Assembly: GCA_016432445.1 (NCBI GenBank)
Contig: CP066689.1
Location: 210,001-242,000, forward strand
DNA from: Candidatus Saccharimonadota bacterium
GTDB taxonomy: Bacteria; Patescibacteriota; Microgenomatia; UBA1406; GWC2-37-13
Direction of reading: 5' to 3'
Length of the DNA: 32,000 nt
Shown: positions 782 to 28,250 of the stretch, piece after piece
Position numbering within the stretch: the stretch's first letter is position 1
Layout of the letters: the number at the start of each line of letters is the position of its first letter
Translations under genes and position numbers: made by a program
Notes under the pieces: generated by a model
Told to the model about the DNA's origin: nothing
Database searches by the model: none
The model's input: the letters and a program-made list of their open reading frames with translations, nothing else

Positions 782-784
782 AAA

Positions 785-1147: not shown

Positions 1148-1148
1148 A

Positions 1149-1445
1149 TTAAAATGGCAATGGACCTAAATTAAATATTACGCCTAGTAATCTTATAACT
1201 AAAAAACTTGAAAGTATCACTACAAATCCTATTATAGCGTAAATAAAAAGCTGTTGAATTTTTTTAAGGTTTTCTGTCTTGCCTTGACTGTTTATGTATA
1301 GGAAACCAGCATAAACAATCATTCCAAAAAAAATAATTCCGCCTCCAATCATTAATACTGGTGTAATGAGATTTAATAATGAAGCAATAGTCCCAAATTT
1401 TGCCGGCTGAAAGGAAGTAGGGTTTATGAATGGCGTTGGACTCAT
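1149..1445 (-). CDS. VirB2/TrbC-like small two-TM protein, paralog 1
   Basis: 98 aa. TM, loop SQGKTENLKKIQ, TM. First gene of a three-gene tandem array. Confidence 0.6.
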   Translation of the reverse strand: MSPTPFINPTSFQPAKFGTIASLLNLITPVLMIGGGIIFFGMIVYAGFLYINSQGKTENLKKIQQLFIYAIIGFVVILSSFLVIRLLGVIFNLGPLPF

Positions 1446-1544
1446 TTTATGAGTGTATTACAATTGCAGTTTGAAGTCAATAATAATACTTCACCCAGAA
1501 CCCAAAACCCAGAACAGTCTTTTTGTTATATAATATTGATTGTT

Positions 1545-2588
1545 ATGTTTAGTCCTTCATTTAGAATTACTAATAAAATTTTAACAAACATATCAAAAAT
1601 TGAGGCGGCGGCTGAGGTAATAAGACATTCTCCTCTTCTTCCTCTTTGGGAGAAACAGTTTAAAGAAGATGCTATTGTCAGATCAGTTTATCATGGAACT
1701 CATATTGAAGGGAATATGCTTGCGAAAGACGAAGCTAAAGATATTCTTTTAGGAAAAGAAGTGATGGGTAGATCCAGAGATATTCAGGAAATTATTAATT
1801 ACAGAAAAGTTATTGAGTTTATTGATGAGGAGGCTAAAAAGAAAATAGAAAAATTTACTGAACCTTTAATAAAAAAAATACATCGTCTTATCGCCAATAA
1901 TGTTTTATCTCAAGAACTAGTAGGGGAGTATAGATTAAAACAGGTAGTTATCCGTAACTCCCAAACTGGAGAAGTGACTTTTCGTCCTCCTCCTCCGGTT
2001 GAGGTACCATTTTTAATGAGAGAGTTTATTTATTGGCTCAATCGCAATGATAAAGATGAACTGCATCCAATTCTTAAAGCAGGTATTGCTCATCATGAAC
2101 TGGTGCGTATTCATCCATTTATTGACGGTAATGGAAGAGTAGCCAGGGCATTGGCCACATTAATTCTTTTTCTCGGAGGTTATGATATCCGCCGTTTTTT
2201 TTCGTTAGAGGAGTATTATGATAGGGATGCGGTGACTTATTATGAAAATCTTGGTAAAGCAACAGCCGGAGATATTACTTCTTGGCTCGAGTATTTTGTT
2301 TATGGAGCAGCTGTTGAGTTTGAAAAAATCAAGGAAAAAATTTTAAAGCTCTCAAAAGATGTAAAATTAAAAGAAAAATTTGGGGGCCAGCAGATTTTTC
2401 TTGGAGAAAGACAGATGCAGATAATTGAGTACTTACAAGAAATTGGTTATCTTCAAAATCAATCGTTTAAAACTTTATTTTCAGATATTTCTGAAGACAC
2501 TGTTTTACGTGATCTTCAGGATTTAATAAAAAAAGGATTAATAAAAAAAGTTGGCAGTACCAAGTCAGCCCGTTATGTAATGGTGTAG
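1545..2588 (+). CDS. Fic-domain protein (AMPylase family) with a C-terminal winged-helix/HTH-like tail
   Basis: Canonical Fic motif HPFIDGNGRVAR, and an upstream IEGN element (GTHIEGN). The C-terminus TVLRDLQDLIKKGLIKKVGSTKSARY looks like a wHTH. The ATG at 1545 is preferred over the ORF start at 1449, which abuts the divergent gene start at 1445. TATAAT at 1529-1534. Confidence 0.8.
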   Translation: MFSPSFRITNKILTNISKIEAAAEVIRHSPLLPLWEKQFKEDAIVRSVYHGTHIEGNMLAKDEAKDILLGKEVMGRSRDIQEIINYRKVIEFIDEEAKKKIEKFTEPLIKKIHRLIANNVLSQELVGEYRLKQVVIRNSQTGEVTFRPPPPVEVPFLMREFIYWLNRNDKDELHPILKAGIAHHELVRIHPFIDGNGRVARALATLILFLGGYDIRRFFSLEEYYDRDAVTYYENLGKATAGDITSWLEYFVYGAAVEFEKIKEKILKLSKDVKLKEKFGGQQIFLGERQMQIIEYLQEIGYLQNQSFKTLFSDISEDTVLRDLQDLIKKGLIKKVGSTKSARYVMV

Positions 2589-2609
2589 TTAAATATTTTT
2601 TATCAAACA

Positions 2610-4403
2610 ATGAAATTTAGCAAGCTGGCTCAAGTTTTTGAAAAGATTGAGAAAACAAGTTCGCGTTTAGCCATAACTCATTTATTGTCTGATTTATTTA
2701 CTAAACTTAATAATGTTGAGATTGAAAAAACAGCTTATCTTCTTCAAGGCAGAGTGGCGCCTCTTTATGAAACAACTGAGTTTAGAATAGCTGAAAAAAT
2801 GGTAATAAAAAGTATTCTTTTTGCCCTTAATTTGGATCGATCGTTATTCATAAAAGAGTATGAAAAAAAAGGAGATCTGGGAATAGCAGTGGAACATTTT
2901 AAAAATCAGTATCCATCTCTTGAGGAAAAAGATTTGGATATTACTCATGTTTATGAAGATCTAAAACGTTTAGCCCTAGCTGAAGGAGCAAAATCTCAGG
3001 AAATAAAGGTGGGAATTTTAGCTCATCTCATACGTCAACTTGATCCTTTATCGTGTCGTTTTTTAGTTAGAATTCCTTTGAGTATGCTGAGACTGGGATT
3101 TTCGGATATGACTGTGCTTGACGCTTATTCGTGGATGATGACGGGAGACAAAAGTTTAAGAAAGAAAATAGAAGATGTTTATCATGTCCGTCCGGATTTG
3201 GGACAGATTGGCAGATTGCTGAAAGAGAAAGGGATTATTACCTTAAGACATGTTAGCCCGCGAATATTTACTCCTGTTATTATGATGAGAGCAGAACGTT
3301 TATCATCTGGTGAGGAAATTATTGAAAAAATAGGCAGATGCTCTATTGAACCAAAATACGATGGCTTCAGGCTTCAGGCTCATTACTTAAAAAATAAAAA
3401 TGAGCTGCGTTTATTTTCACGAAATCTTGATGATGTTTCTTATATGTATCCTGATATAGTTGAAGGGATTAAAAAAGAAGTTAAATGTGAAGAAATTATT
3501 TTTGAAGGAGAAGCCGTTGGTTTTGATCCCAATACAGGTAATTTTTTACCGTTTCAGGAGACAGTTCAGCGTAAACGAAAATATGATATTGAAGAAAAAA
3601 TAAAAGAGATTCCTTTAAAGTTTTTTTCTTTTGAGCTTTTGTATCTGGATGGGGAAAGTTATATTAATGTACCTTTTCATCAAAGAAGAGAAAAATTGGA
3701 GAAAGCAGTAGATGGGAAAAAGGACGTCTACAAAGATACAGTCTTAATTGCTTCCAATACTGTAACTGATGATGCTAAAAAGATAGAACTTTTATTTGAT
3801 GAGATGGTTACTAAAGGGCTAGAAGGCATTGTTGCAAAAAAGCTTGATGGTGTGTATCAGGCTGGAGCCCGAGGATGGAACTGGATTAAGTTTAAGCGAA
3901 GCTATTCATCAAAGATTGAGGATACAATTGATTGTTTAGTTATGGGTTATGATTATGGACGTGGGAAGCGGGCAAAGTTTGGTATTGGTGCGTTTTTGGC
4001 TGGAGTGTATGATGAAAAAGAAGATAAATATGTAACCGTGGCTAAGATCGGGACGGGTCTTACTGATGAAGAGTGGAAAGATCTTAAAAAAAAGTGTGAT
4101 CGTTTTATTTCCTCAAGCAAGCCGGCTTTATACGAAGTAGATAAGGCTATGGCGCCTGATATTTGGGTTAAGCCTTTTTTGGTAACCGAGATTAAAGCTG
4201 ATGAAATTACTAGATCACCAGTTCATACAGCAGGTCGGCTAATGAAGTCATCCAAAAATGGCAAAGGACAAGAGGTAGAAAAAGCCGGACTGGCTCTTCG
4301 TTTCCCTCGTTTAGTACGTTTTCGCGATGATAAACGACCTGAAGATACAACTACTCTTAAAGAATTGGAGGAGATGTATAAAGCCGCCACCCACCATAAA
4401 TAA
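2610..4403 (+). CDS. ATP-dependent DNA ligase, three-domain archaeal/eukaryotic Lig1-like type
   Basis: Adenylation motif I EPKYDGFRLQAH (KxDGxR). Also FEGEAV, EGIVAKK and WIKFKR motifs. About 240 aa of N-terminal DNA-binding-domain-sized region. 597 aa. Confidence 0.85.
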   Translation: MKFSKLAQVFEKIEKTSSRLAITHLLSDLFTKLNNVEIEKTAYLLQGRVAPLYETTEFRIAEKMVIKSILFALNLDRSLFIKEYEKKGDLGIAVEHFKNQYPSLEEKDLDITHVYEDLKRLALAEGAKSQEIKVGILAHLIRQLDPLSCRFLVRIPLSMLRLGFSDMTVLDAYSWMMTGDKSLRKKIEDVYHVRPDLGQIGRLLKEKGIITLRHVSPRIFTPVIMMRAERLSSGEEIIEKIGRCSIEPKYDGFRLQAHYLKNKNELRLFSRNLDDVSYMYPDIVEGIKKEVKCEEIIFEGEAVGFDPNTGNFLPFQETVQRKRKYDIEEKIKEIPLKFFSFELLYLDGESYINVPFHQRREKLEKAVDGKKDVYKDTVLIASNTVTDDAKKIELLFDEMVTKGLEGIVAKKLDGVYQAGARGWNWIKFKRSYSSKIEDTIDCLVMGYDYGRGKRAKFGIGAFLAGVYDEKEDKYVTVAKIGTGLTDEEWKDLKKKCDRFISSSKPALYEVDKAMAPDIWVKPFLVTEIKADEITRSPVHTAGRLMKSSKNGKGQEVEKAGLALRFPRLVRFRDDKRPEDTTTLKELEEMYKAATHHK

Positions 4404-4467
4404 ATCCAAAATCCAAATGACAAATATCAAATTTTTGTTTGACATTTAGATTTTGAAATTTGGATTT
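4402..4467. repeat. Heptamer-register inverted array (unit AAATCCA family) between convergent genes
   Basis: Left arm AAATCCA AAATCCA AATGACA AATATCA, 10-nt spacer, right arm TGACATT TAGATTT TGAAATT TGGATTT. The outermost units are perfectly complementary. Confidence 0.8.
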
Positions 4468-4472
4468 TGTGT

Positions 4473-5150
4473 TTATTTGCTTGGGTGGATTTTGATGGTA
4501 TTGGCTGCTCTTAACGGATATTCTATAAAAAAAGATTGAGGTCTTTTTTTAATTCTTCTGGCTGACGTAGGCATAATTAATGATTTATCAAACATAATTA
4601 CACCTCCAGCTTTACCTATATGAAGAGCTAAATCCATATCCTCATGGACTTTTTTATCTTCAAGGCAGGTATTTTTTTTTACTTTATCCCAAATTTTTTT
4701 AGTAATCGCCATATTTGGTCCGATTAGGGTTCCTTTTCCTTTTTGAGCGATTCTGACAATGTCAGCATAAATTATACTACCTAAGATAGTGGGTAAAAAA
4801 AAATCATACATCTTTAAAGGGCCGGTAACTGCATCTATTTTGTATCTGGAAAAATCATTGATTATTTTTTTTATCCAATCAGAAGGCGGTATTGAGTCAG
4901 CGTCACAACGGGCAAGGATGTCGCCTTTAGCTTCGTCAAAACCTTTATTTCTAGCATAAGTTATTCCTTGCTTAAATTCTTTAAAGATAGTTGCATTAAA
5001 ATTTTGAGCGACATTAATAGTGTTATCTGTAGAGTTATTATCAACGATAATGATTTCTTCAGGTTTCTCTTCCTGGAGGTTTAAGGCTTCAAGGCATTTT
5101 TCAATATATTTTTCTTCGTTGTAAGCAGGTATGACGACAGATACTTTCAT
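4473..5150 (-). CDS. Family 2 glycosyltransferase
   Basis: VVIPAYNEEKYIEKCLEAL..IIIVDNNSTDNT..CDADS: GT-A fold N-terminus with a DxD-like motif. 225 aa. Confidence 0.8.
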   Translation of the reverse strand: MKVSVVIPAYNEEKYIEKCLEALNLQEEKPEEIIIVDNNSTDNTINVAQNFNATIFKEFKQGITYARNKGFDEAKGDILARCDADSIPPSDWIKKIINDFSRYKIDAVTGPLKMYDFFLPTILGSIIYADIVRIAQKGKGTLIGPNMAITKKIWDKVKKNTCLEDKKVHEDMDLALHIGKAGGVIMFDKSLIMPTSARRIKKRPQSFFIEYPLRAANTIKIHPSK

Positions 5151-5156
5151 TGATTT

Positions 5157-5165
5157 ATTTTATCA
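5157..5165 (-). promoter_or_regulatory. Extended -10 (TGaTAAAAT) 6 nt upstream of the ATG at 5150
   Basis: The minus strand reads TGATAAAAT-aaatca-ATG. No SD-like sequence. Confidence 0.45.
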
Positions 5166-5190
5166 TAGTATAATATCTCTACCAATATTT

Positions 5191-6009
5191 ATGAAACCTT
5201 TTTTTTCAATTATTATTCCTACATTAAATGAAGAGCGTTATCTTCCAAAAATTCTTAGATCTTTATCAAATCAGACAGATAAAAGTTTTGAGGTAATTAT
5301 TGTTGATGCTCATTCAGAGGATAAAACTAAAGAGGTGGCTTTACAGTTTAGCAATAAGTTCATTTTTAATTTTTTTGAGGTTGATAAACGGAATGTTTCG
5401 TTTCAGCGCAACTTTGGAGTTTCAAAATCTGAAGGTGACTATTTGATATTTCTTGATGCCGATGCAGGTATATCTTTGTCATTTATAAAAGGTATTAAAA
5501 AAATTATCACTCACAAAAAAGGCCTTGTCTTTATTCCTCATATCATTCCTGATGAAAAGAATCAGTTTGATATAAAACTAGTTTTCAACGTTGTTAATTT
5601 TTTAATTGATGCCTCTCAGTATGTGGGCAAACCTTTATCCTCAGGAGGTTCAATGATATTTGAAAAAAACTTTTTTCTTCGAATTGGCGGATTTGATGAA
5701 AGTTTGCCGTATGCTGAAGATCATAATCTAGTTCAAAAAGCATATAAATGGGGAGTCAGGGCTAATTTTTTGCCTCAAATTAAAGTTAAGTTTTCTTTAA
5801 GGCGGCTAAAAAGAGAAGGCCGTTTGAAACTTCTTTACAAATACCTTTTATCTACGGCTTATGTGTTGGTTAAAGGAGACATTAAAAAGAAGATTTATAA
5901 TTATGAGATGGGTGGACAGTTTTATGCTAATAAAAATAAAGAAGCTTTATTTAAAGATTATATAACTCAGGTAAATAATTACTTTAAAGGTATTTTTAAG
6001 GAAGACTAA
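5191..6009 (+). CDS. Family 2 glycosyltransferase
   Basis: FSIIIPTLNEERYLPKILRSL..VIIVDAHSEDKT..LDADA. The ATG at 5191 is preferred because the ORF start at 5131 overlaps the divergent gene. TATAAT at 5169-5174. Confidence 0.75.
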   Translation: MKPFFSIIIPTLNEERYLPKILRSLSNQTDKSFEVIIVDAHSEDKTKEVALQFSNKFIFNFFEVDKRNVSFQRNFGVSKSEGDYLIFLDADAGISLSFIKGIKKIITHKKGLVFIPHIIPDEKNQFDIKLVFNVVNFLIDASQYVGKPLSSGGSMIFEKNFFLRIGGFDESLPYAEDHNLVQKAYKWGVRANFLPQIKVKFSLRRLKREGRLKLLYKYLLSTAYVLVKGDIKKKIYNYEMGGQFYANKNKEALFKDYITQVNNYFKGIFKED

Positions 6010-6011
6010 AA

Positions 6012-6728
6012 TTACTTAAACCGGGAAAGGATGGGAAAATGATCAGAAGCTTTTAGAGGTATTTTTTTAGTTTCAATAAGTTCAAGGTTTTTGTAAAGAA
6101 TGTAATCCAGTTTCCACTTCAACGGAAATATTTTAAGGAATTTTCCTTCAAAAGTACAATTAAGGTTATTGGTAGCTTCCTTTAATTTATATTTTTCAAT
6201 CAGTTCTTCAAACTGCTTTCTTTGATATGGATAATTGAAATCGCCGGCAATTAAAACATTTTCATCACGGCTTAAATGCATATCATCTAAAGTAGCTTTC
6301 ATTTGTTTTGTCCTTATTCCATTAGTCCCCAGATAACTAAGATGTAAGTTGTAGCTTGTAATTATTTTTTTTATTCCTTTCACCGAGAATTTTGTTTTTA
6401 ATACTGTTCTTGGATTGTTTCCTCCTCTTAATATGACTAAAAAAAATTCATGATAACTCCTAGGCAAATTAAAACTTGATGATTCCAAAAATTCTATAGT
6501 TTTAGGGTTATAAAAAGTCGCCAAGCCATAGATTTTGTCAAACTTTATAAAAGAATTGGAATAATCTGCTAACTTATACCCATGTTTTTCAACATCTTTA
6601 AGATTTTTTTCGTTAGTTTCAATCTCTTGAAGAGATAATATATCGGGGCGAGTTAAAGAGAAGACTTTTTCGAAGTTATTTAAGGCACTGTTAAAACAGA
6701 CGTTATAAGTAAGCAGGGAAACAGCCAT
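6012..6728 (-). CDS. Endonuclease/exonuclease/phosphatase (EEP) family protein
   Basis: LLTYNV..PDILSLQEIE..AGDFNYP..SDHFPI: the characteristic EEP catalytic motif series. TATAAT (6734-6739, minus strand) lies 5 nt upstream of the ATG. Confidence 0.75.
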   Translation of the reverse strand: MAVSLLTYNVCFNSALNNFEKVFSLTRPDILSLQEIETNEKNLKDVEKHGYKLADYSNSFIKFDKIYGLATFYNPKTIEFLESSSFNLPRSYHEFFLVILRGGNNPRTVLKTKFSVKGIKKIITSYNLHLSYLGTNGIRTKQMKATLDDMHLSRDENVLIAGDFNYPYQRKQFEELIEKYKLKEATNNLNCTFEGKFLKIFPLKWKLDYILYKNLELIETKKIPLKASDHFPILSRFK

Positions 6729-6842
6729 AACATATTATATAAAATTATTAAATTAATATAAGGCAATTTTATCCACAGAGAAAATTATAAATTAAAAAGA
6801 TTGGTAGGACAAGCTAGAGGACGCTTCAATATTTATAGGTCA

Positions 6843-6873
6843 TCTTATAGTAAACACGATATTTACTATAAGA
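6843..6873. promoter_or_regulatory. Perfect 12-bp inverted repeat (operator-like) abutting a -35 box
   Basis: TCTTATAGTAAA-cacgata-TTTACTATAAGA. It ends 1 nt before the TTGACA at 6875. Confidence 0.5.
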
Positions 6874-6874
6874 C

Positions 6875-6903
6875 TTGACAATGTTAAGAATTTTCTCTAT
6901 ATT
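6875..6903 (+). promoter_or_regulatory. Near-consensus sigma70-type promoter
   Basis: TTGACA (6875-6880), 17-nt spacer, TATATT (6898-6903). The ATG at 6910 lies 6 nt downstream. Confidence 0.6.
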
Positions 6904-6909
6904 TAAATT

Positions 6910-7059
6910 ATGGAAGCTAATAGTCTAAGAAATAGCGACAGGAAGCTTAATAAACAAAGTTTTCAAAAGAAAGAAGATTTATTGCATTTCGTAAAAAAAC
7001 AGTTTAAAGAGTTAGTCAAGAAAAATTTAGAAATTCCAATAACGCTTTATCAATTATAA
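6910..7059 (+). CDS. Small basic hypothetical protein (49 aa), possibly leaderless
   Basis: Read by hand: MEANSLRNSDRKLNKQSFQKKEDLLHFVKKQFKELVKKNLEIPITLYQL*. It sits between a strong promoter and a hairpin terminator. It could instead be a non-coding transcript. Confidence 0.35.
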   Translation: MEANSLRNSDRKLNKQSFQKKEDLLHFVKKQFKELVKKNLEIPITLYQL

Positions 7060-7072
7060 TTGAAGATTGAGG

Positions 7073-7133
7073 AAAAAAAGAGCATCACTACCGCTCGTAT
7101 AAAAGGGACGACGTGTAGTAATGCTCTTTTTTT
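7073..7133. terminator. Bidirectional intrinsic terminator-like hairpin
   Basis: A7 run, then AGAGCATCACTAC (7079-7091), loop, GTAGTAATGCTCT (7115-7127), then T7 run. 13-bp stem with one mismatch. Confidence 0.6.
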
Positions 7134-7210
7134 GTTCTTTAACCGAAATTTCCCTTTAAGAACAAACTACAGTAGACAATAGCAAAATAAAAAAAAATTG
7201 TCAAGAACAA

Positions 7211-9409
7211 TTATTGATCTATTTGATAGATGGCTCCTTGTTTATTACTGCTCACGAAAATTTTATCAGCAATTAAGTTAAATTTACTTTCATTTAGTTT
7301 GGGATACTTATTTCTTTCAAGAGTGGAAACAACAACATACTTGATTTGATATTTATTTATTAAATTCATAGTTGTTGCGATATCACTAGATTCATAAATA
7401 TTAACAATGTCAGGGATTCTCTTACCGACAACATCAGACGAACCTCTCCACAGCCACTCATGAACCCACCAGCCGGCAACTGTAGGCAAACCTGTATAGG
7501 CTGAGATCCTGGCATAATCTGTGTAGGAATCACCTTGAGCTTCAAGAATAATTGGTTGATTAGTAATATTAGTATTTAAATAATCAATGATTTCTTTGTC
7601 TTCAGGATAGCTGTTTTTAATCCATGTGGAGCCGTCAAGCTGCGGTTTCTTTTTTAATGAGCCGTAATAGGAAGAGAAAGCAAAAAATGGGTAAATAATT
7701 ATAAAAAAAAATAAGAAAAAATAAATGCTTTTTATAATAAAATTAAAAAAGTATTTCATAAAAGTAAGCCGGTATAAAGCATAAACGGAGGCAATGCTCA
7801 TAATCGTAAAAGCTTGATAGCCTAGTTTAAACATTGTATTTGCTCTAAAGTGAGCCGGATAAATATCTTTAATATAAAAAAACTCGGCAATCGTAATCAA
7901 AAAAGTTCCAAAAGCAAAAAATAAAAGCATTAATAAATCAATTTTATTTAGATTAAGAAGAGAGTGGATTTTTAAGCCTTTTCTTTCAAAATATTTTATG
8001 CTTCTTACGGCAATAATAAATGTCAAAATAGCCAGTGAAATCCAAAAAAATCCCCAGAGTACAAAAAGCATCCATGGGGCAGATACTTGGCAGTTACCTT
8101 TTTCAAAAAGAAAAGGACCCAATTTTTTAAGATTAACAAGGAAATCAGGACTGCAATTGACACCGATGCCGTTTACAAATGGAGAAAAGTTAAGAGAAAA
8201 AGGAAAAGAAAAAATAAGGAAAGAACTAAATAATATTATGCCATAAAACAATGACTGAAAAGATAACCTAAACATAATAAAAATAATAAAAACAGTAAGC
8301 AAAAGATAAATTGGGCCATCAAAAGCATTAGTCATATAATGAATGGCCGACATGAAGCCGATTGCAATAATATAAAAAAGGTTATGGGTTATGGGTGATG
8401 GGTTGTGAGTATTTTTAACTTTAAGAAAAAAACTAAAAAGCAAAGCTAAGGTTAATAAAACAAAAGGGATATCAAAAACATGGCCGTGGAGATCAGCTAC
8501 GACATAAGAATAGGCTGGAAATTCATGAATAGTAAATGGAATAAATCTGGTGGCGTTAGGATACCAGTACTTTGTTGGGTTATAGTTACTGATAATTTTC
8601 CAGAAAGGAATAGGATTTTCATTGGGATAACCGGTAGTGAAAAGATATATGGTATGTAAATTGCCGCTTAAGTTAACAACAAAACTTCCTAAAAAACCAA
8701 AAGCAATTAAAGGCAACTTTTTAATTTTATTAAATCCTAAAACATGTTGTTGAACAAAGGCTATACAGTTGCCAGCCAGTGAAAAAGCAAGAGTCATCCC
8801 TTGAGCAAATATAGTGGCTAGGATTAAATTGTAGGCTACAGTAGGCAATGTATTGGTTAATTTTATTAAAAAGGCTCCAGTTAAATGACCAAAGTAATAA
8901 TAGTTAATAAAATATCCTTGAGGTTTTTGAGGATCAGCCGATAACCACATATCCAAAGGAGGGAAATACTGAGATTTCACAATAGAGTTAATAAACCCAA
9001 AATCCATAAATTTCTCCAAACCCCGCACTGAAGGTTCTTGGCCGCGCACGTAAGTCAAAAACAGCAATGAAGCTATAAAAATAAGTTCTTCTAATATAAA
9101 AATGCCGATTTTTTCTTTATTAAACACATAAGATTTTTTAATCCATAAATAAACATTTACTACTGCAAATAATAGTAAAACCGTAATTAAAGTAAGCTGG
9201 GTAAAAGGAGCAATTTTGGTAAGGCCAAGGATAAATGCTGTGTAGCTTAAAAAAATAATTCCTAAAGTTTTGCTAAAGGCATAGCCCTCATCAAAAAAAT
9301 TAGGAAGGATGCTTCTTATCAGCGGAAAAAAAACTATTCCAATAACAAAAAGATATAAATACCATGTAAGTGTGGTTAAGATCCAGTCCATTTGTTTATT
9401 ATAATGCAT
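7211..9409 (-). CDS. Large polytopic membrane protein with YYY motif (DUF2298 / Chlor_Arch_YYY-like, putative GT-C-type glycosyltransferase)
   Basis: Many TM segments, the FINYYYFGH motif and a C-terminal soluble domain. The true start may be the second Met at 9391, because TATAAT (9398-9403, minus strand) lies 6 nt upstream of it. Confidence 0.65.
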   Translation of the reverse strand: MHYNKQMDWILTTLTWYLYLFVIGIVFFPLIRSILPNFFDEGYAFSKTLGIIFLSYTAFILGLTKIAPFTQLTLITVLLLFAVVNVYLWIKKSYVFNKEKIGIFILEELIFIASLLFLTYVRGQEPSVRGLEKFMDFGFINSIVKSQYFPPLDMWLSADPQKPQGYFINYYYFGHLTGAFLIKLTNTLPTVAYNLILATIFAQGMTLAFSLAGNCIAFVQQHVLGFNKIKKLPLIAFGFLGSFVVNLSGNLHTIYLFTTGYPNENPIPFWKIISNYNPTKYWYPNATRFIPFTIHEFPAYSYVVADLHGHVFDIPFVLLTLALLFSFFLKVKNTHNPSPITHNLFYIIAIGFMSAIHYMTNAFDGPIYLLLTVFIIFIMFRLSFQSLFYGIILFSSFLIFSFPFSLNFSPFVNGIGVNCSPDFLVNLKKLGPFLFEKGNCQVSAPWMLFVLWGFFWISLAILTFIIAVRSIKYFERKGLKIHSLLNLNKIDLLMLLFFAFGTFLITIAEFFYIKDIYPAHFRANTMFKLGYQAFTIMSIASVYALYRLTFMKYFFNFIIKSIYFFLFFFIIIYPFFAFSSYYGSLKKKPQLDGSTWIKNSYPEDKEIIDYLNTNITNQPIILEAQGDSYTDYARISAYTGLPTVAGWWVHEWLWRGSSDVVGKRIPDIVNIYESSDIATTMNLINKYQIKYVVVSTLERNKYPKLNESKFNLIADKIFVSSNKQGAIYQIDQ
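8381..8408. repeat. Tandem heptamers embedded in coding sequence
   Basis: GTTATGG GTTATGG GTGATGG GTTGTGA on the plus strand. Encodes THNPSPITHN in the minus-strand membrane protein. Confidence 0.7.
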
Positions 9410-9413
9410 TCGA

Positions 9414-9485
9414 TTTTAGATCTTTGATCTTGGATCTTAGATAATAAAATTCTAAGATCTAACATCTAAGACCTAAGATCTAAAG
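9414..9485. repeat. Heptamer-register inverted array (unit TCTAAGA family) between divergent gene starts
   Basis: TTTTAGA TCTTTGA TCTTGGA TCTTAGA, 9-nt spacer, TCTAAGA TCTAACA TCTAAGA CCTAAGA TCTAAAG. Confidence 0.8.
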
Positions 9486-9490
9486 GTGGG

Positions 9491-9519
9491 TTGCTTTTTT
9501 GAGCTGTTTCTGATATAAA
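9491..9519 (+). promoter_or_regulatory. valS promoter candidate (leaderless geometry)
   Basis: TTGCTT, 17-nt spacer containing the TG extension (9511-9512), then TATAAA (9514-9519). The ATG at 9527 is 7 nt downstream. Confidence 0.5.
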
Positions 9520-9526
9520 AAAGGTC

Positions 9527-11713
9527 ATGGAACCGAAGTTTATTCCGTCTCAAGTAGAAGAAAAAATATATAAGTTTTGGGAAGAAAAAGGCTATTTTAA
9601 AGCAAAAGTTGATAAAAACAAAAAGCCGTTCTCAATAATTCTTCCTCCTCCTAATGCTAATGCCGATCTTCATTTAGGACAGACAATGTATGTTTATGAA
9701 GATATTATGGTTCGTTATCACAAACTTTTGGGAGATGAGGTGTTATGGCTTCCTGGAGCAGATCATGCTGGTTTTGAAACGCAGTACGTTTTTGAAAAAC
9801 ATCTTCAAAAGCAAGGGAAAAGCCGTTTTGATTATGACAGGGACACTCTTTATAAAATGATCTGGGATTTTGTCATAAACAATAAAAGCAACATGGAAAA
9901 CCAACTTAAACGTTTAGGTTTTGCTCTTGATTGGTCAAAAGAAAAATTTACTCTGGACCCGGATATCGTCAAAATTGTTTATAAAACATTTAAAAAACTT
10001 TATGATGATGGGTTAGTTTATCGCTCAGAAAGGTTAGTTAACTACTGTACTAAATGTGGAACTGGATTTTCTGATCTGGAAGTAGTTCATGTTGAACGTA
10101 CCGATCCACTTTACTATATGAAGTATGGGTCATTTATTTTAGCTACAGTTCGGCCTGAAACCAAGTTTGGGGATACGGCTGTTGCTGTAAATCCAAAAGA
10201 TAAACGATATAAAAAATGGGTGGGTCAAGAGATTGAGGTAGAAGGGCTTATCGGAAAATTCCGCGTGAAAGTCATTGCTGATGAGGCTATTGATCCAAAG
10301 TTTGGGACAGGAGTTGCCAAGGTGACTCCGGCTCACGACATGACGGATTTTGAAATAGGTAAACGTCACGATTTGGAAATGAAACAGGTTATTGGATTTG
10401 ATGGAAAGCTTACTGCCATAGCCGGTCCATATGCTGGACTTAGAGTAAAAGCTGCCCGAGAGAAGGTAGTTGAAGATATGAAAAAAAAAGGCCTGATTGA
10501 TCATATTGATGAAAATTATACTCATACCGTTAGTACTTGCTATAAATGTAATACTACATTAGAACCATTGCCTATTCCTCAATGGTATGTGCGAATTCGT
10601 CCTTTAGCCGATAGAGCCATTAAAGAGATAAAAGCTAAAAAAATTTATTTTTTGCCAAAACGCTTTAAAAAAATGGCTATTCAATGGTTGACTAATTTCC
10701 ATGATTGGAATATTTCCCGTCAGGTTGTTTGGGGAATAAGAATTCCGGCGTGGCACTGCATAGATTGTGATCATGGCGGCATTCAAGAGTGGGTGATCAC
10801 CGATGGAGATAAACCAGAAAAATGCACTAAATGCCAAAGTACTCACTTGGAACAGGATATTGATACTTTTGATACTTGGTTTTCATCAGCCCAGTGGCCA
10901 TATGCCACTTTGCTTTCGCAAAGTGGAATTTCAAATTTCAAATTTCAAATTTCAAAAGAAAATTCAGAAAATGATTTTTTTAATTATTTTTATCCTACAT
11001 CTGTAATGGAGACAGGCTATGATATTTTACCTTGGTGGGTAGCCAGAATGATCATGATGGGTTATTACGTTATAGATAAGCCTCCTTTTAGGTTAGTTTT
11101 CCTTCATGGACTGGTACGGGATAAAAAAGGGCAAAAAATGAGCAAATCCAAAGGAAATGTAATCAATCCTATTGACATGGTTGACAAATATGGCGCCGAT
11201 GCCTTAAGAATGTCTCTTCTTTTTGGAGCAAAAGAGGGTAATGATATTTCAATGTCCGAGGAGAAAATTGTAGGTATGAGAAATTTTACCAACAAGATTT
11301 GGAATATCGGAAGGTTTATCCACTTGAATCAAATCCCAAATCCAAATGTCAAATTTCAAATGTCAAATACAATTTTGAAGGAATTGAAAAAAGAGTTTGA
11401 GGAGGAAAAGAAAGCTTATCTTAAAAATATGAAAAATTACCAATTTACTAAAGCTCTTGATTTAGTGTATGATTTTTTGTGGCACAGATTTGCTGATTAT
11501 TATATAGAACAATTGAAAGATGATCTAAGAACTGGTAAAATAGATGTTTTGGAAGTATTAAGATCTGTTTATAAAGAGAATTTAATAATGCTTCATCCTT
11601 TTGCTCCGTTTGTAACCGAAGCAGTTTGGAAGGTATTTGAAGGGGAAGAGAAATCAATATTAGATTCAAGATTCATGATTCAGGATTCAAGAGGTTTTAT
11701 TCATGAATCGTAA
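9527..11713 (+). CDS. valS: Valyl-tRNA synthetase (short form, no C-terminal coiled coil)
   Basis: Class I signature PPPNANADLHLGQ (HIGH-like), KMSKSKGN, the DTWFSS..YPTS..WWVARM core and a CP1/editing-sized insert. The N-terminus FIPSQVEEKIYKFWEEKGYF is typical of ValRS. Confidence 0.85.
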   Translation: MEPKFIPSQVEEKIYKFWEEKGYFKAKVDKNKKPFSIILPPPNANADLHLGQTMYVYEDIMVRYHKLLGDEVLWLPGADHAGFETQYVFEKHLQKQGKSRFDYDRDTLYKMIWDFVINNKSNMENQLKRLGFALDWSKEKFTLDPDIVKIVYKTFKKLYDDGLVYRSERLVNYCTKCGTGFSDLEVVHVERTDPLYYMKYGSFILATVRPETKFGDTAVAVNPKDKRYKKWVGQEIEVEGLIGKFRVKVIADEAIDPKFGTGVAKVTPAHDMTDFEIGKRHDLEMKQVIGFDGKLTAIAGPYAGLRVKAAREKVVEDMKKKGLIDHIDENYTHTVSTCYKCNTTLEPLPIPQWYVRIRPLADRAIKEIKAKKIYFLPKRFKKMAIQWLTNFHDWNISRQVVWGIRIPAWHCIDCDHGGIQEWVITDGDKPEKCTKCQSTHLEQDIDTFDTWFSSAQWPYATLLSQSGISNFKFQISKENSENDFFNYFYPTSVMETGYDILPWWVARMIMMGYYVIDKPPFRLVFLHGLVRDKKGQKMSKSKGNVINPIDMVDKYGADALRMSLLFGAKEGNDISMSEEKIVGMRNFTNKIWNIGRFIHLNQIPNPNVKFQMSNTILKELKKEFEEEKKAYLKNMKNYQFTKALDLVYDFLWHRFADYYIEQLKDDLRTGKIDVLEVLRSVYKENLIMLHPFAPFVTEAVWKVFEGEEKSILDSRFMIQDSRGFIHES
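10927..10954. repeat. (AATTTCA)x4 perfect tandem heptamer array inside valS
   Basis: Four exact copies read from the sequence. Translated as ISNFKFQISK in a loop longer than I recall for E. coli ValRS. Confidence 0.85.
11331..11365. repeat. Heptamer array inside valS matching the left arm of the AAATCCA-family hairpins
   Basis: AAATCCC AAATCCA AATGTCA AATTTCA AATGTCA. Encodes IPNPNVKFQMSN. Confidence 0.8.
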
Positions 11714-11726
11714 ATCATGAATCAAA
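11663..11726. repeat. Heptamer-register inverted array (unit GATTCAN) overlapping the valS stop
   Basis: GATTCAA GATTCAT GATTCAG GATTCAA, spacer, then TTCATGAATCGTAAATCATGAATC. An 11-bp perfect stem forms between GATTCATGATT and AATCATGAATC. Confidence 0.8.
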
Positions 11727-11749
11727 TTAATTAATTTCATAATTTATCT

Positions 11750-11884
11750 ATGAAACGTACTTATCAGCCAAAAAAGGGAAAAAGAATGAAAAAACATGGG
11801 TTTTTGAAAAGAATGAAAACTCATGATGGAAGAAATGTTATAAAAAGAAGAAGAAATAAAGGGAGAAAAAAATTAACAGTATAA
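11750..11884 (+). CDS. rpmH: 50S ribosomal protein L34
   Basis: Hand translation: [44 protein letters not shown], which matches the L34 family pattern. It is absent from the ORF track because it is under 60 aa. CATAAT (11738-11743) lies 6 nt upstream of the ATG. Confidence 0.9.
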
Positions 11885-11896
11885 AATAAACTTATT

Positions 11897-12685
11897 ATGA
11901 ATCCACTTGAACTAATTGGACGTTATATTTATGACCCATTTTTTTTCCATCCATTCATAAATCTTTTAGTAGCTTTTACTAAACTATTTTTAATAGTTAA
12001 AATACCATGGGCTTTTGGTTTTGCTATTGTTGCTTTAACTGCTTTAATCCGTCTTATTCTTCATCCTTTTTTTGATAAGCAGATACAAACAAGTAAAAAA
12101 ATGCATGATTTAAAACCCCATCTTGATGTTTTGTCCCAAAAACACAAAAAAGATCCTAAAAAGCTTCAGGCTGAACAGATGCGACTCTATAAAGAAGCAG
12201 GCATTAATCCAGCATCAGGATGTCTATTTGTTATTATCCAAATGCCTATTTTTATAGCTTTGTATCAAACATTGTCCCTTTTCTTGACGACAGGGAATAT
12301 TGAAAAAATAAATAAAGTTTTATATTTCCCTTTCTTAAAAATTCAGGCGCTTGATCCATCATTTTTTGTATTTAACTTAGGTGTAACACCAGCTCAATCA
12401 GGTCCTTGGTATTACTACCTTGTTCCTTTAATAACGGCTGTTCTTCAATATTATCAAACTGTAGTGACTATGCCTGCGCCCGCCAAGGTTGAAAACAAAG
12501 AAGGTGAAAAGAAAGTAGAAAATAAAGGTGGAGATTTCCAGCAGGCAATGCAAACTCAGATGAAGTATATTTTCCCGCTTATGATCGGATGGTTTTCTTA
12601 TACTTTGCCAGTGGGATTATCCTTATATTGGAACATCTTCTCCATCTTTAGTATAATTCAGTATAAGAGGGTTTATAAGAAATAA
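11897..12685 (+). CDS. yidC: Membrane protein insertase YidC/Oxa1 (short type)
   Basis: LTALIRLILHPF..QMRLYKEAGINPASGCL..IQMPIFIALY..LSLYW. Conserved position after rpmH. Confidence 0.85.
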   Translation: MNPLELIGRYIYDPFFFHPFINLLVAFTKLFLIVKIPWAFGFAIVALTALIRLILHPFFDKQIQTSKKMHDLKPHLDVLSQKHKKDPKKLQAEQMRLYKEAGINPASGCLFVIIQMPIFIALYQTLSLFLTTGNIEKINKVLYFPFLKIQALDPSFFVFNLGVTPAQSGPWYYYLVPLITAVLQYYQTVVTMPAPAKVENKEGEKKVENKGGDFQQAMQTQMKYIFPLMIGWFSYTLPVGLSLYWNIFSIFSIIQYKRVYKK

Positions 12686-12753
12686 ATCCAAAATCCAAAT
12701 TTCAAATTTCAAAACATTCATCATTTGACATTTGAGCTTTGATATTTGGATTT
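12684..12753. repeat. Heptamer-register inverted array (AAATCCA family), exactly ten 7-mers in one register
   Basis: AAATCCA AAATCCA AATTTCA AATTTCA AAACATT CATCATT TGACATT TGAGCTT TGATATT TGGATTT. Confidence 0.85.
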
Positions 12754-12773
12754 ATTAGTTAATAAATAATTTT

Positions 12774-13265
12774 ATGGATAAAGCACAAACAATTAAAAAA
12801 GAAGCTGAGGAGCTTTTGGGAAAAATGATTGATAATTTTGAGGTTGAGATTGAGGAAGACAATGGAGTTTATCAGGTGATTATCAAAACTGAAGAAAACG
12901 CTCCAACTGTGATTGGCAGACATGGAGAGACTATAAGAGCAATTCAAAAGATACTTGAGGTTGTTTTATACAAAACACTGGGTGAATCAGTACCTCTTCT
13001 TGTGAATGTTAACGATTATCGTGAAAAGCAAAATCAAAGATTAGAGAGTCTGGCTGCTCAGATGGCTGAAAAAACGCAAAGTGCAAAAAGAGCGACACAA
13101 ATGCGCGGTCTTTCCTCTTATGAACGGAAAGTTATTCATGAGTATATAACCACAAATTACCCGAATTTGACTACTTACTCAGTCGGCGAGGGAAGGGATA
13201 GATATTTAGTTGTCGATATGAAAGGTAATGAACCTAAACAAAATGAAAACGGTATGGAAGAATAA
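12774..13265 (+). CDS. khpB: Jag/KhpB-like RNA-binding protein (KH + R3H domains)
   Basis: GRHGETIRAIQ (KH GxxG) and LSSYERKVIHEYI (R3H). Conserved position after yidC. Confidence 0.75.
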   Translation: MDKAQTIKKEAEELLGKMIDNFEVEIEEDNGVYQVIIKTEENAPTVIGRHGETIRAIQKILEVVLYKTLGESVPLLVNVNDYREKQNQRLESLAAQMAEKTQSAKRATQMRGLSSYERKVIHEYITTNYPNLTTYSVGEGRDRYLVVDMKGNEPKQNENGMEE

Positions 13266-13437
13266 GCTAATTTTTTTAATTCTTCTTTATCCGGCAGTGA
13301 TTTTGTTTGATCTATTTTATTATTTCCTTTACCGTTCTTCCTGTTTGCAATGCACTAATATCGGTGAATTTTTAAAAAACTCTTCTCTCTCGGTATTTCT
13401 CATCTCTCAAGCCATAAGAACATTTAAAAGATCTTAG
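13228..13437 (+). CDS. Doubtful small hydrophobic ORF
   Basis: 69-aa ORF that overlaps the jag 3' end by 38 nt. One hydrophobic stretch. Its stop lies inside the heptamer repeat. No other support. Confidence 0.15.
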   Translation: MNLNKMKTVWKNKLIFLILLYPAVILFDLFYYFLYRSSCLQCTNIGEFLKNSSLSVFLISQAIRTFKRS

Positions 13438-13511
13438 ATCTGAGATCTTAGATTTTCGATATTAATCTGTTTTGTTTCTAAGATCCAAGATCTAACATCT
13501 AAGATCTAAAT
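13428..13511. repeat. Heptamer-register inverted array (TCTAAGA family), twelve 7-mers in one register
   Basis: AAGATCT TAGATCT GAGATCT TAGATTT TCGATAT TAATCTG TTTTGTT TCTAAGA TCCAAGA TCTAACA TCTAAGA TCTAAAT. Shares the exact 18-mer AAGATCTAACATCTAAGA with 9414-9485. Confidence 0.85.
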
Positions 13512-13532
13512 CTGGCATTTACTTCCTAAAAA

Positions 13533-13541
13533 TGGTAGAAT
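13533..13541 (+). promoter_or_regulatory. Extended -10 (TGgTAGAAT) 6 nt upstream of the ATG at 13548
   Basis: TGGTAGAAT-aaattc-ATG. No SD. Confidence 0.5.
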
Positions 13542-13547
13542 AAATTC

Positions 13548-16500
13548 ATGGTAAATACGCCTGTGGCCGAAAGATCAACAGCTGGGATAAGAGAAGGCGT
13601 GGTGGATATAAAAATCCCCCTGGCAGAAGTTTTGGGGCCAAAAAATGAAGCAGAATTGCTAAAGCTTTTGAAAAGTCTAGAAATAGAAGCAAAAAACGCT
13701 AAAGTTGCCGCCAAACAAGAACAAAATAAAAAAAATAATGTTATTTCAATTAATAAAGGAGAAGAAAATAAGGGAGATGAAAAAAGTCTTAAGTTAGTAG
13801 AAAGTTCAGTTAAGCAAATTATTATTGCCTGCAATAATAATCCCAATCTTATTCCATCAAATTTGTCCGAAGCTAATCGTCATATGCTTGGTAATTTGAT
13901 GTTTCGGTTAAGAAACGTAGATCAGATTAATCCATCAACTTCTCCTTACATTTATGAGATTATCCAAAAGGCCATGAATAATCAGGCCAATCCATTGGAG
14001 ATATTATCAAAAGATGATTTGAAGTTTTTAGCGGCAGCTGATGAATATCTTCATCGACAAATACAAGATGTCATGACTGCTGCGGCCAGCAGAGCCGGTA
14101 TTGATCAAAAGACAATAGACCATTTTAAAACTGAGACAGTGCCTCCTAAAGTAACTGTTGATTCAGTAATTAATAGTCGTTTCGAACAAGAAGAGGGTAG
14201 TGCCGAATGGCTTCAGCGTCAGGAAAGAGGGATAAGTGATTATTATGATCTAAAAGAACCAAAGGAGGTACGTCTGTTAACAGCATTGTATTCAAATGAA
14301 GGTTTTGGCAAGTATATAGCTGAGACTATTAGGCAAACCATCAGTGAAGTTGGTGAAGCAGATAGAGCTTTATTGGGTAGAACTGTTAGTAAAAAAATCG
14401 AAGAGGACATGGTGCTTCTTTTCAGTAAAGTTTTCCGTAAAGCTGATGAATCAATGCCTCACGAGTTTTGGGATGAGATCGTTAAAGAAGGTTTTTATTC
14501 TTCAATTGAGATGACTTTTCACAATATGAAAAATGAGATCATCAAAAGAGGCGAGTACATGGAAAAATTGATGGCAAATCTTAAATATAATAATCAGCCT
14601 TTACCGACAGAGTTAGATGATTTAACAAAAATAGATTTTTATAGACGTTTCTCAGTTGAAGAATATCAGCCTCAAGATATAAAACGGAAAGATGGTACGA
14701 TTAAAACAGATTATGTAAAAAGAGTAGTTCCTTCGCCTGGATTTCAAAAAAGCAAAGTAAACGAGTTCACAAGAGCGCTTCAGGTTCTTATAGATCAGGA
14801 AGCAGATTTTAGAAAATATGGTCATAATGTAAGAGCTTTATTTTATAAACCAGGAGGTGAGGGAGGCTTCTGGAACTCTTTAGCACAATATGCTAATGAA
14901 TTTCCAGCTGTAGATCTTGACTCAATGACTTTTTTGCCAGATAGTGATATTTTTATGAGTGCGGCTCGTCTTTATACAAAATATTTAGAGGAGGATTTCG
15001 CGGTAAAAGACTGGGTTCATGATGCCAATATGTTTGCTAATGGCTTTCAAAGTACTAGAACTACCATTGAAGAAAATATTTTAGCAACCTTAAAAAGACA
15101 GTATGGAAAAGATATTAAAACAGAAGAATGGAGATTAAGAAGAGCCATGAATATGGGTGTGGCTATAGCCCGGGGAATCTTGATGACTGAGCCTGAGATT
15201 GCCGCCTGGGCTCTTCCTAGCATGAAGCGGGCTAAAGGTATGGCTCCAACTTTCGTTAGCTATTATCTTAATGACAATACGGCTTTAAGCACTCTTAATC
15301 CTCTTCATCATTTTTTAAGATGGCAGGCAGACGTAATCTTACAGCATAATGTGGCTTTTTTCCCGGTTGACGGGCCGACACCCAAGTTTACTGAAAAAGC
15401 TGATCACACTAAGTTGTGGGACTTAGCAGAAAAATATAGAGAGACTTTTTATGACGGTGGAAATGTTCTTAGTAAGGAAACTTTAGGCCGTAGGATTTTT
15501 TTGGAGGTTCTGCCAAATTTTGGAAAGGTAGGCAGTATTTTTACCCGTGCCGGCTGGAGAAATGAGAATGCCATTGATGGTTGGCTTGTTCACGATGGTA
15601 ATAAAACGAAGTTAGATTATCTTAAGTCATGGAAATCTTTAGAAAACATTGGTTTTGAACCTTTGTACTCTTTTGCCACTGCTATTGATGATAATCTTAA
15701 GAGCGCTTTAACTAATCCGGAATCAATGCTGGATATGGAAGCTATTGAAAAAGGAGTGGAGGAGGAAATTACCAAAGGTAAATATCAAAGACGGGAAAAA
15801 GATCAAAAAATTGAGGAGGCAGTTGAAGCTAAAAAAAAGGAGATAACTGAAAAAATAGCGGAAAGAGAAAAAATTTTTAAATACATATTTAATAAATATA
15901 TCCTTGATCCTTCTCAAAGACATCTTGATACCTTAAATTTGGATGTTCCTGATCCAGCTTATGAAGCTGAGGTTGCCAAACAAAGGGTAATCGCCGAGCA
16001 AACAGTAGATGGAAAGATTAAACAAGGAGATCAGTTTGTTAAGGACGACCGTGAAAATGAGATTATTAAAGAAACATATAGTCGTATCCTTTATAAAGGA
16101 TTAGCTGGAGTATTACGTGACCGTATGCCTGCAAAATTTCTCAGGATAGACCGTGATCGTAACTCGGTTGATGGGGAAAGCCGTTGGAAAAAAGTAAGAA
16201 ATGCTTTAATAGGTAAGACTGGATGGCCGGCAAAAGGTGTTAACGCAATGCAAGAGATGGCTATTCCATATGATCAGGCTATGAAAGATTTAGCTTTGGT
16301 TGAAACTCAACTTAGAGTGCATACTTCAGAAAAAATGAAAAAACATCTAGAGCAATATACTAATAATCCTTTAAGTTATGAGTTACATAGCGCTAAAATT
16401 TATGATTACATTCTTGATGATCGAACGATTGAGGAAGTTTTAAATGAGAATCTAGGAGATGAAACTGAGATTACTGCTGCAGAGAAGACTGCCCGTATAA

Positions 16501-17399: not shown

Positions 17400-17439
17400 G
17401 ATTGAATTTGAGTAAAGATTAGGTTATTCTAAAGATAGA

Positions 17440-18216: not shown

Positions 18217-18239
18217 TAGGAATTGACTTACTCAGATTT

Positions 18240-19959: not shown

Positions 19960-20003
19960 AATGCAAGGGAAGAAAATGCTGTAAATGGTACAATTATTTT
20001 AGA

Positions 20004-28215: not shown

Positions 28216-28250
28216 TTTTTATTAAAAAAGAGTTATAATATATAACTAAT

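Follow-up and report, generated by a model that had tools for sequence, protein, structure and literature searches.

Heptanucleotide units are favored among the long simple sequence repeats (SSRs) of bacteria, a bias for which polymerase slippage of ~7 nt has been proposed (Mrazek 2007, as far as summarized in PMC4679880 and PMC4692102). Examples given in these sources include the short tandemly repeated repetitive (STRR) sequences of the cyanobacteria Calothrix/Nostoc, the GGGAATC repeats of Xanthomonas, and the GGGGAYT repeats of Nostoc (PMC4692102; summarized in PMC4679880). Direct TAACTGA repeats occur in marine Beggiatoaceae, cyanobacteria, and Bacteroidetes, and this cross-phylum distribution suggests horizontal spread (PMC4679880). 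Here, we analyze five intergenic hairpins, each built from two facing arrays of 7-nt units, in a 32,000-nt stretch of DNA (the window; contig CP066689.1, positions 210,001 to 242,000, of Candidatus Saccharimonadota bacterium assembly GCA_016432445.1). We give a probability of roughly 55% to the reading that these hairpins are lineage-specific, DNA-level dispersed palindromic repeats of Microgenomates/Roizmanbacteria, whose arms grow by 7-nt slippage and which survive only where they are tolerated. As a class, these repeats resemble selfish or slippage-generated DNA in their behavior, and neither a terminator nor a known RNA.

Rickettsia palindromic elements (RPEs), reportedly described by Ogata et al. 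in 2000, are said to lie between genes and in frame in coding genes, to be palindromes of 100 to 150 nt even inside genes, and to add peptides at permissive surface positions of essential proteins. In the window, a prior reading made from the letters alone (the sequence-only reading) had proposed five intergenic elements in which tandem 7-nt units face roughly complementary ones. All five are present where it placed them and consist of the units it named:

Element 1, 4388-4492: AAATCCA/TTTGGAT family, with core inverted heptamer arrays at 4402-4467.
Element 1, outer arms: CCACCCA..AAATAAA facing TTTATTT..TGGGTGG.
Element 2, 9412-9485: AGATCT family, (GATCTTn)x4, a 9-nt loop, and (TCTAAGA)x5.
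Element 3, 11657-11733: GATTCAn/nTGAATC family, with its left arm at 11663-11692.
Element 4, 12683-12756: AAATCCA/TTTGGAT family, between the yidC stop (TAA at 12683-12685, in the stem) and the jag start (12774).
Element 5, 13428-13511: AGATCT family, between a 69-aa small open reading frame (ORF) and the promoter of a 1283-aa gene.

To quantify periodicity, we counted stretches with at least 17 matches among 21 positions to the base p nt downstream, with Markov-2 shuffles as the null. The window holds nine period-7 arrays against ~0.04 expected per period, while there are none at periods 4, 5, 6, and 8, two at period 9, and one each at periods 10 and 12. Tandem Repeats Finder assigns period 7 to each of the two arms of elements 2 to 5. 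A common period-7 inverted grammar, carried by several unit families, is real. In 80 loci around the valyl-tRNA synthetase (ValRS) gene, 88 period-7 arrays were found versus 0 to 20 at any other period. It is the period and not the sequence that is constant, because 57 different canonical heptamers occur among 97 arrays.

Every one of the five elements folds up as a single hairpin, long and imperfect, with minimum free energies of -17 to -29 kcal/mol and z-scores of -2.9 to -6.6 relative to dinucleotide shuffles. Stem mismatches number about one per 7-nt unit. Across the 97 arrays, the fraction of mismatches in the top two unit phases is 0.69, against 0.635 +/- 0.014 in the null, a modest concentration that fits higher-order duplication or a recognized core. 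The suggestion that some elements run in one unbroken register proved uninformative, since any 7-nt grid appears regular when each arm is periodic; the phase relation of the arms differs between elements 1 and 4.

Comparison of orthologous junctions, which the sequence-only reading had proposed, shows that the elements are insertions, because syntenic relatives have overlapping or minimal junctions (~1 to 50 nt) at the same sites. We aligned 20 syntenic Roizmanbacteria loci gene by gene. The nearest relatives in genome, metagenome, and protein collections share ~69 to 72% YidC or 78% ValRS identity, and presence or absence is thus compared at genus-or-deeper distance. Junctions in the 20 loci are either short (from overlap to ~50 nt, with a folding energy of ~0) or 60 to 430 nt long, usually with a strongly folding insert. 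One relative with 69% YidC identity (L084) keeps the gene order through a 1219-aa gene and has no heptamer arrays: its junctions measure 2, 5, 38, and 77 nt, and its structured divergent spacer of 55 to 145 nt is likewise free of arrays.

Element 1 lies between a convergent ATP-dependent DNA ligase (+) and a family 2 glycosyltransferase (GT2; -), and it supplies the stop codons of both genes along with the new tails THHK-stop and HPSK-stop. Its palindrome reaches ~4388-4492, beyond the 4402-4467 first assigned to it, contains a 14-nt period, and folds at -17.0 kcal/mol on the + strand (z -2.9) and -22.4 on the - strand (z -5.2). In four relatives (L003, L009, L021, and L037), the ligase and GT2 genes overlap by 7 nt (TCAaTGA), leaving no spacer.

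Element 2 occupies the divergent spacer between a DUF2298 gene (-), whose true start is probably the ATG at 9391 on the - strand, and the ValRS gene (start at 9527). It folds at -29.2 kcal/mol (z -5.5) and is followed by a promoter-like TTGCTT-17-TATAAA. The insertion also adds ~30 nt of nonrepeat sequence that includes a -35-like box, and its flanks may be a duplicated native TATAAT box. The same spacer is 11 to 50 nt long in seven relatives (L003, L012, L015, L016, L017, L018, and L085).

Element 3 (-23.8 kcal/mol, z -6.6) is partly translated. Its left arm and loop form a 13-codon insertion in the ValRS C terminus, SIL-DSRFMIQDSRGFI-HES-stop, and its right arm contains the ValRS stop codon (11711-11713) and ends 17 nt before rpmH. 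In relatives, ValRS ends ...SILNES(L)-stop and abuts or overlaps rpmH; in L084, it overlaps.

Element 4 folds at -21.8 kcal/mol (z -6.3). The corresponding yidC-jag spacer is only 1 to 20 nt in 7 of 17 syntenic relatives, and others have heptamer hairpins of different units (L055, L002, L019, and L027) or other hairpin inserts; the 77-nt spacer of L084 holds a different, GC-rich hairpin, a GTCATTCC-type palindrome. Element 5 (-27.5 kcal/mol, z -4.6) is entered for one codon by the 69-aa ORF, whose stop (13435-13437) lies within the left arm; tails of ORFs are thus drawn from elements 1, 3, and 5. Directly after element 5 comes the conserved promoter of the 1283-aa gene, CTGGCA-18-TAGAAT (13512-13541). 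L084 has the same promoter (CTGGCA...TGGTAnAnT) after a 38-nt junction without an element.

These junctions are hot spots for several small palindromic element classes. Palindromic inserts of the form GTCATTCC(C/G)...GGAATGAC, with GC-rich stems (e.g., TTCCCGCctgcGCGGGAA), occupy the same junctions in other Roizmanbacteria; carriers are L001, L002, L009, L015, L021, and L084 (e.g., L084:10840-10870 and, in L002, upstream of 10001). Arrays with an 8-nt period (TTAACnnn units: cgtgttaacgggttt...aactcgttaac...) fill the ValRS-rpmH spacer at L003:12075-12150 and L009:12170-12235, and period 7, though dominant, is therefore not the only one. At L009:20640-21110, two inverted AGAATTC-type heptamer arrays ~400 nt apart flank a 127-aa ORF (-), an arrangement that looks like a hairpin element with a gene in its loop or like a cassette bracketed by the arrays.

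Arrays are also found inside coding sequence, where three were overlooked by the sequence-only reading:

10920-10962, + strand: direct array in frame in ValRS, AATTTCA x4.3, perfect.
11332-11370, + strand: direct array in frame in ValRS, AAATCCC AAATCCA AATGTCA AATTTCA AATGTCA.
8376-8410, - strand: direct array in the DUF2298 membrane-protein gene, GGTTATG-type as read on the + strand.

None of the three has an inverted partner, and this is a clean split across loci: intergenic arrays are mostly inverted pairs, and coding arrays are direct, with inverted-partner scores of at most 8 for coding copies and at least 13 for most intergenic ones. The first ValRS array encodes ..GISNFKFQISK.., an insertion in a variable loop that is gapped in most homologues. 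The second encodes ..IPNPNVKFQMSN.. and draws on the units of the left arms of elements 1 and 4, in the order found there. In the ValRS alignment, array-encoded peptides are insertions at four variable sites, each in a different subset of genomes, with the rest gapped. The orientation of coding arrays is biased as well. Adenine makes up 0.48 of their sense strand, compared with a background of 0.32, and a stop triplet is present in 42 of 54 consensus units when read antisense, versus 19 of 54 when read sense. In at least one coding array, a variant unit disrupts a stop codon that would otherwise be in frame. Within the AATTTCA array, the in-frame A_AAT_TTC at 10933-10939 has the X_XXY_YYZ form of a -1 ribosomal frameshift site, which is probably a coincidence of the 7-nt unit.

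The arrays are concentrated in one lineage and outside genes. Microgenomates-like loci carry 12.5 arrays per 100 kb, 15-fold more than the 0.83 of other taxa. Of the 97 arrays, 62 fall within crude ORF calls and 35 outside or at an edge; noncoding sequence being ~11.5%, this amounts to ~4-fold enrichment outside genes. Among the three origins that the sequence-only reading had suggested, a lineage-specific slippage product fits best, given this density contrast and the number of units. Recent local duplication is visible in AAATCCA x2, in AATTTCA x2 and perfect x4.3, in the 14-nt period of element 1, and in a 32-nt duplication in L003. Such neighboring identical units, together with Logan contigs that stop within arrays, are indirect signs of slippage.

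Several copies exist within families. With Logan contigs, the genome was extended to ~49 kb in all, which contains three AGATCT-family and three AAATCCA-family copies with identities of 30/30 and 21/21 nt. A contig that starts 7.1 kb left of the window (L114) opens with TAAGATCCAAGATCTAACATCTAAGATCTA, which agrees with the right arm of element 5 in 30 of 30 nt, the variant unit TCTAACA among them. A stretch of 21 nt, AAATAAATCCAAAATCCAAAT, is common to elements 1 and 4, and a further hairpin of the AAATCCA family, asymmetric, sits in the rpsG-fusA spacer. The claim that the elements are not copies of one mobile element therefore holds across families but fails within a family. AAATCCA-family hairpins also occur in L003 (yidC-jag), L009 (rpmH-yidC), and L019; the termini TAAATCCAAA...TTTGGATTTA recur in this family, and in element 4, L003, and L009 alike, the stop TAA is followed directly by ATCCAAA.

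Compared with described systems, the arrays have the properties of heptanucleotide repeats: at least three head-to-tail units, an excess over neighboring periods, enrichment in noncoding DNA, and lineage specificity. The SSR/STRR class likewise prefers period 7, is enriched between genes, is distributed patchily by lineage, and varies in length and sequence between related genomes at the same junction, and inverted pairs between genes have been noted for the Xanthomonas and Nostoc repeats (PMC4692102; summarized in PMC4679880). New here relative to known heptamer repeats are the many units coexisting per genome (in SSR/STRR, one unit dominates), the systematic hairpin pairing (intergenic copies are nearly always two facing arrays in one hairpin), direct arrays in frame in essential enzymes, and a candidate phyla radiation (CPR) host with a genome of ~1.1 Mb. 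Moreover, unlike those of SSR/STRR, the units are AT-rich and form no G-quadruplexes. In the literature that could be searched, we found no description of such arrays for Microgenomates or Patescibacteria.

Other repeat classes share part of this profile. Like the REP/BIME/REPIN (repetitive extragenic palindromic and related) sequences, the hairpins are short, imperfect, intergenic palindromes, often at gene 3' ends or in operons, that form multicopy families (PMC3116915). Unlike REPs, they have arms of tandem 7-nt units and several unrelated families coexist; no REP-type head motif (such as GTAG) was noticed, although no dedicated scan was made, and no RAYT (the transposase associated with REPs) is encoded in the ~49 kb. 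Coding copies resemble RPEs in adding loop peptides to an essential protein, but they are direct arrays only, in a stop-free A-rich orientation and with a heptamer substructure, and thus lack the palindrome of RPEs within genes. TAACTGA repeats are also heptamer tandem repeats at gene boundaries, with a translation that likewise passes through all three frames; nevertheless, they consist of a single unit, are direct with one inverted case, and lie in the 5' untranslated region just upstream of starts (PMC4679880).

TIGR (tandem interspaced guide RNA) arrays have units of ~36 nt with two alternating 8- to 12-nt repeats and 9-nt spacers, are clustered beside a tas gene with a Nop domain, and are common in CPR and phages (PMC12045711). 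They are similar in being short periodic repeats of CPR/phage DNA with poor sequence conservation, and a stem-loop variant exists (PMC12045711). A TIGR-Tas array was ruled out by the 7-nt unit, the single dispersed hairpins, and a window without a Nop-domain gene. DNA-uptake sequences were set aside because there are several unrelated units and not one motif, DnaA boxes or an origin because the window has no GC-skew switch, and integron attC sites because the genes on either side are syntenic and of housekeeping type, unlike cassettes.

A mechanism can be proposed for these dispersed palindromic repeats. In noncoding junctions, two facing arrays make up one long imperfect palindrome. The arrays would lengthen by replication slippage in 7-nt steps, a step to which we apply the polymerase-footprint idea of Mrazek for bacterial heptanucleotide repeats, and intrastrand template switching may keep the two arms roughly matched. 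Copies could reach new sites through mobilization in trans, like that of REPs or miniature inverted-repeat transposable elements, or through microhomology-templated copying. Local seeding or microhomology is hinted at by the native-like ...GAATCG-TAA tail kept in the right arm of element 3 and by the native tail of the small ORF, which resembles the AGATCTn unit. Purifying selection would then leave only tolerated insertions: at gene ends, those that provide a new stop plus a brief tail; in surface loops, A-rich arrays that are free of stops and 3n long. In the data, arrays do survive only at gene ends and in permissive loops. Once transcribed, the elements must fold into hairpins of ~25 to 35 paired bases with mismatches, which RNase III could cut or which could stop exonucleases; we take this for a by-product, and not for what accounts for their existence.

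Several observations weigh against this reading. The inverted layout is accounted for only by steps that we infer. Neither a transposase nor a RAYT (IS200/IS605-like TnpA) was found in the window ORFs or flanking Logan contigs (~49 kb), no copy-number polymorphism was observed, all independent contigs being identical to the window, and TA is present at both ends in only two of four AAATCCA-family copies. With 63% protein identity between them, L004 and the window nonetheless have 27 nt of AATTTCA array in common, letter for letter, at one and the same ValRS loop. The vocabulary AAATCCA, AAATGAC, and AAAGCTC with TTTGACA, TTTGAGC, and TTTGGAT recurs in genomes at only ~60 to 66% ValRS identity, and two phage contigs of 52 to 57% GC from IMG/VR (L128 and L154) carry long AT-rich heptamer hairpins in the vocabulary of the window. 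These phage hairpins span 150 to 200 nt (L128:4700-5000 and L154:380-640), with AAATCCA, AAATGAC, AAATTTC, and AAAGTTC facing TTTGACA, TTTGAGC, and TTTGGAT. Pure slippage fails to explain such recurrence across distant genomes and phages, which hints at sequence-specific recognition or horizontal spread.

A search for the hosts of these phages gave little purchase. L154 encodes portal and capsid genes, and portal homologues reach only 22 to 26% identity. Of the two contigs, only L154 shows a slight enrichment of the HIP1 octamer of cyanobacteria (GCGATCGC), with two copies in 4.3 kb. A BLAST search of a phage-contig array against plasmids returned no match, probably owing to low-complexity masking.

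An alternative that we regard as possible but unlikely is that the hairpins are selected RNA elements of polycistronic transcripts: terminators without a U-tract, RNase III sites, or 3'-end stabilizers like the REP/BIME hairpins of E. coli operons. Transcribed REP-type hairpins can stabilize upstream mRNA (PMC3116915). Four of the five elements lie exactly at gene 3' ends with stop codons embedded in their stems, the folding z-scores are strong, and element 1 has U-rich tails in both directions between its convergent genes. Relatives, too, often have another hairpin at the same junction (of GTCATTCC type or made of octamer arrays), as though a hairpin were wanted there. Nevertheless, the yidC-jag spacer is absent from 7 of 17 relatives and the one following ValRS from several, the starts on either side of element 2 diverge, another copy is placed upstream of a gene, and the direct coding arrays are left unexplained. 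The antisense strand folds better in seven of nine codirectional hairpins, and there is thus no sign of selection on the transcribed strand; Rfam at gathering thresholds finds only tRNA-Ser (30779-30862) in the window. The structured-RNA idea of the sequence-only reading hence gains no support.

Its statement that these are not simple intrinsic terminators is upheld. Like Rho-independent terminators, the hairpins come immediately after stop codons, and element 1 separates convergent genes. Unlike them, the stems are long, AU-rich, and mismatched (25 to 35 paired positions), with no adjacent U-run, and one element sits between divergent starts. A terminator consensus scan of positions 1 to 20000 gave no hit on elements 1 to 5, and its total was below shuffle expectation. 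Canonical terminators with a GC-rich stem and a U-tract are used elsewhere in the genome. Textbook cases with a T-run in the DNA lie at 7068-7133 (bidirectional), ~28181-28203, and ~28333-28359, and the 191-nt spacer 28180-28372 holds two of the three. They flank small unannotated ORFs or possible small RNAs (~6901-7059 and ~28243-28330).

Less probable still is a purely in situ origin, in which slippage and fold-back synthesis turned a short native sequence at each gene end into tandem and inverted duplicates, without any copying from one locus to another. In element 3, the right arm reads CATGAATCG-TAA where L001 has the native AATGAATCGTTA-TAA (NESL-stop), and the left arm equals four inverted copies of nTGAATC. 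Similarly, the native tail of the small ORF in L084 (..AAGAGATAG) resembles the AGATCTn unit of element 5, and units are highly diverse. However, element 5 equals a copy outside the window over 30 nt, down to the variant TCTAACA; AAATCCA-family copies have the same termini at unrelated junctions here and in L003, L009, and L019; and element 2 brings ~30 nt of nonrepeat sequence. Furthermore, the ORF tails may be mere read-through into an element, as in L019.

We are equally doubtful that the arrays serve as platforms to which a protein binds, reading one 7-nt unit per monomer, on single-stranded RNA or DNA or on a duplex, in the manner reported for cold-shock OB-fold proteins on heptamer repeats. 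Recognition would rest on the conserved core (TCAAA/TTTGA or AGATCT), with the variable positions left unread. Variation concentrated at particular unit phases is consistent with this proposal, as is a TTTGA/TCAAA core that stays constant from distant genomes to two phage contigs whose GC is much higher; CspB binds heptamer repeats, as far as summarized in PMC4679880. Still, at least three unrelated cores occur in one genome and 57 canonical units overall, a 14-nt duplication would give the same modest phase concentration, and coding arrays in essential genes are better explained as tolerated insertions. No candidate protein was found.

A more speculative form of this thought, which we hold improbable, is that the TTTGA/TCAAA-core and AGATCT-core vocabulary is a recognition code and that a conserved factor reads or writes DNA in 7-nt steps. 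If so, the factor would be a nucleic-acid-binding protein, or an enzyme that synthesizes or copies heptamer arrays, common to CPR bacteria and some phages, and it would install hairpins at junctions and peptide loops in essential proteins.

Although AT-rich low-complexity repeats are liable to mis-assembly and Logan contigs break at the arrays, an assembly or sequencing artefact has virtually no chance of being the explanation, given identical per-run contigs, arrays in frame within essential genes, and comparable elements in dozens of independent metagenome-assembled genomes. The independent assemblies are per-run Logan contigs from other runs of the SRR121133xx-121134xx series. They match the window at 100% identity over -2208..10953 and 11687..13504, and one contig occurs in 10 samples. 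Elements 1 and 2 (both in contig L113) and 4 (contig L081) are covered whole, element 5 to 13504, and element 3 in its right arm only, so that four elements are reproduced fully or nearly and half of the fifth. Contigs stop inside arrays at window positions 10953 (where L113 ends in the AATTTCA array), 11687, 12714, 13504, and -7139, as expected from repeated or variable k-mers.

ValRS, YidC, and other proteins assign the window to a groundwater bacterium of Candidatus Roizmanbacteria (Microgenomates, CPR), and the window has ~34% GC. Its gene order runs from the ATP-dependent DNA ligase (+) through GT2 (-), GT2 (+), an EEP-family protein (-), and DUF2298 (-) to ValRS, rpmH, yidC, jag (+), the 69-aa ORF (+), and the 1283-aa ORF (+), followed by type IV secretion system (T4SS)-pilin-like genes, ClpB, RecF, and tRNA-Ser. 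The sequence-only reading had contrasted a housekeeping part containing the elements with an island at 13.5-31 kb. The latter is no island: its 1283-aa gene is syntenic in relatives, and it contains ClpB and RecF. Elements are missing there because spacers are few, and the contrast is an artefact of where spacers lie.

Some neighboring genes merit description in their own right. The ligase (2610-4403) is a replicative-type, ATP-dependent enzyme (Lig1-like, three-domain) whose position is conserved across Roizmanbacteria. ValRS of this clade (9527-11713 in the window) is only ~700 to 740 aa and ends ...SIL...; it is without the C-terminal extension that homologues from Clostridia, Melainabacteria, and Caldisericota have in the same alignment. 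The usual gene order is rpmH-rnpA-yidC. Here and in syntenic relatives, rpmH (11750-11897) is followed directly by yidC, with no rnpA (the RNase P protein gene) between them. The 69-aa hydrophobic ORF (13228-13437), whose sequence overlaps that of the jag end, is conserved in L084, L085, L014, L015, L019, and L022 and is probably a real small membrane protein that often goes unannotated. Five small T4SS-pilin-like paralogues (PF18895) at 404-1445, 17440-18216, and 27833-28180 are scattered around the 1283-aa protein, a conserved one without a Pfam hit; together, they may constitute a CPR-type secretion or pilus cluster.

The long-standing excess of 7-nt repeats in bacteria has a clean test case here, in which many unit sequences combined with one period point to machinery and not to a motif. 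Since the arrays fragment de Bruijn assemblies, with contigs ending inside them, they also bear on the quality of metagenome-assembled CPR genomes, and a vocabulary held in common with phage contigs makes horizontal spread possible. For the proteins, the arrays generate new segments, C-terminal tails, and stop codons. Extreme streamlining is attributed to CPR/Patescibacteria genomes. In this one, heptamer-array insertions occupy five of the seven window spacers of at least 60 nt as well as loops of an essential synthetase, and therefore streamlining coexists with an active repeat-generating process.

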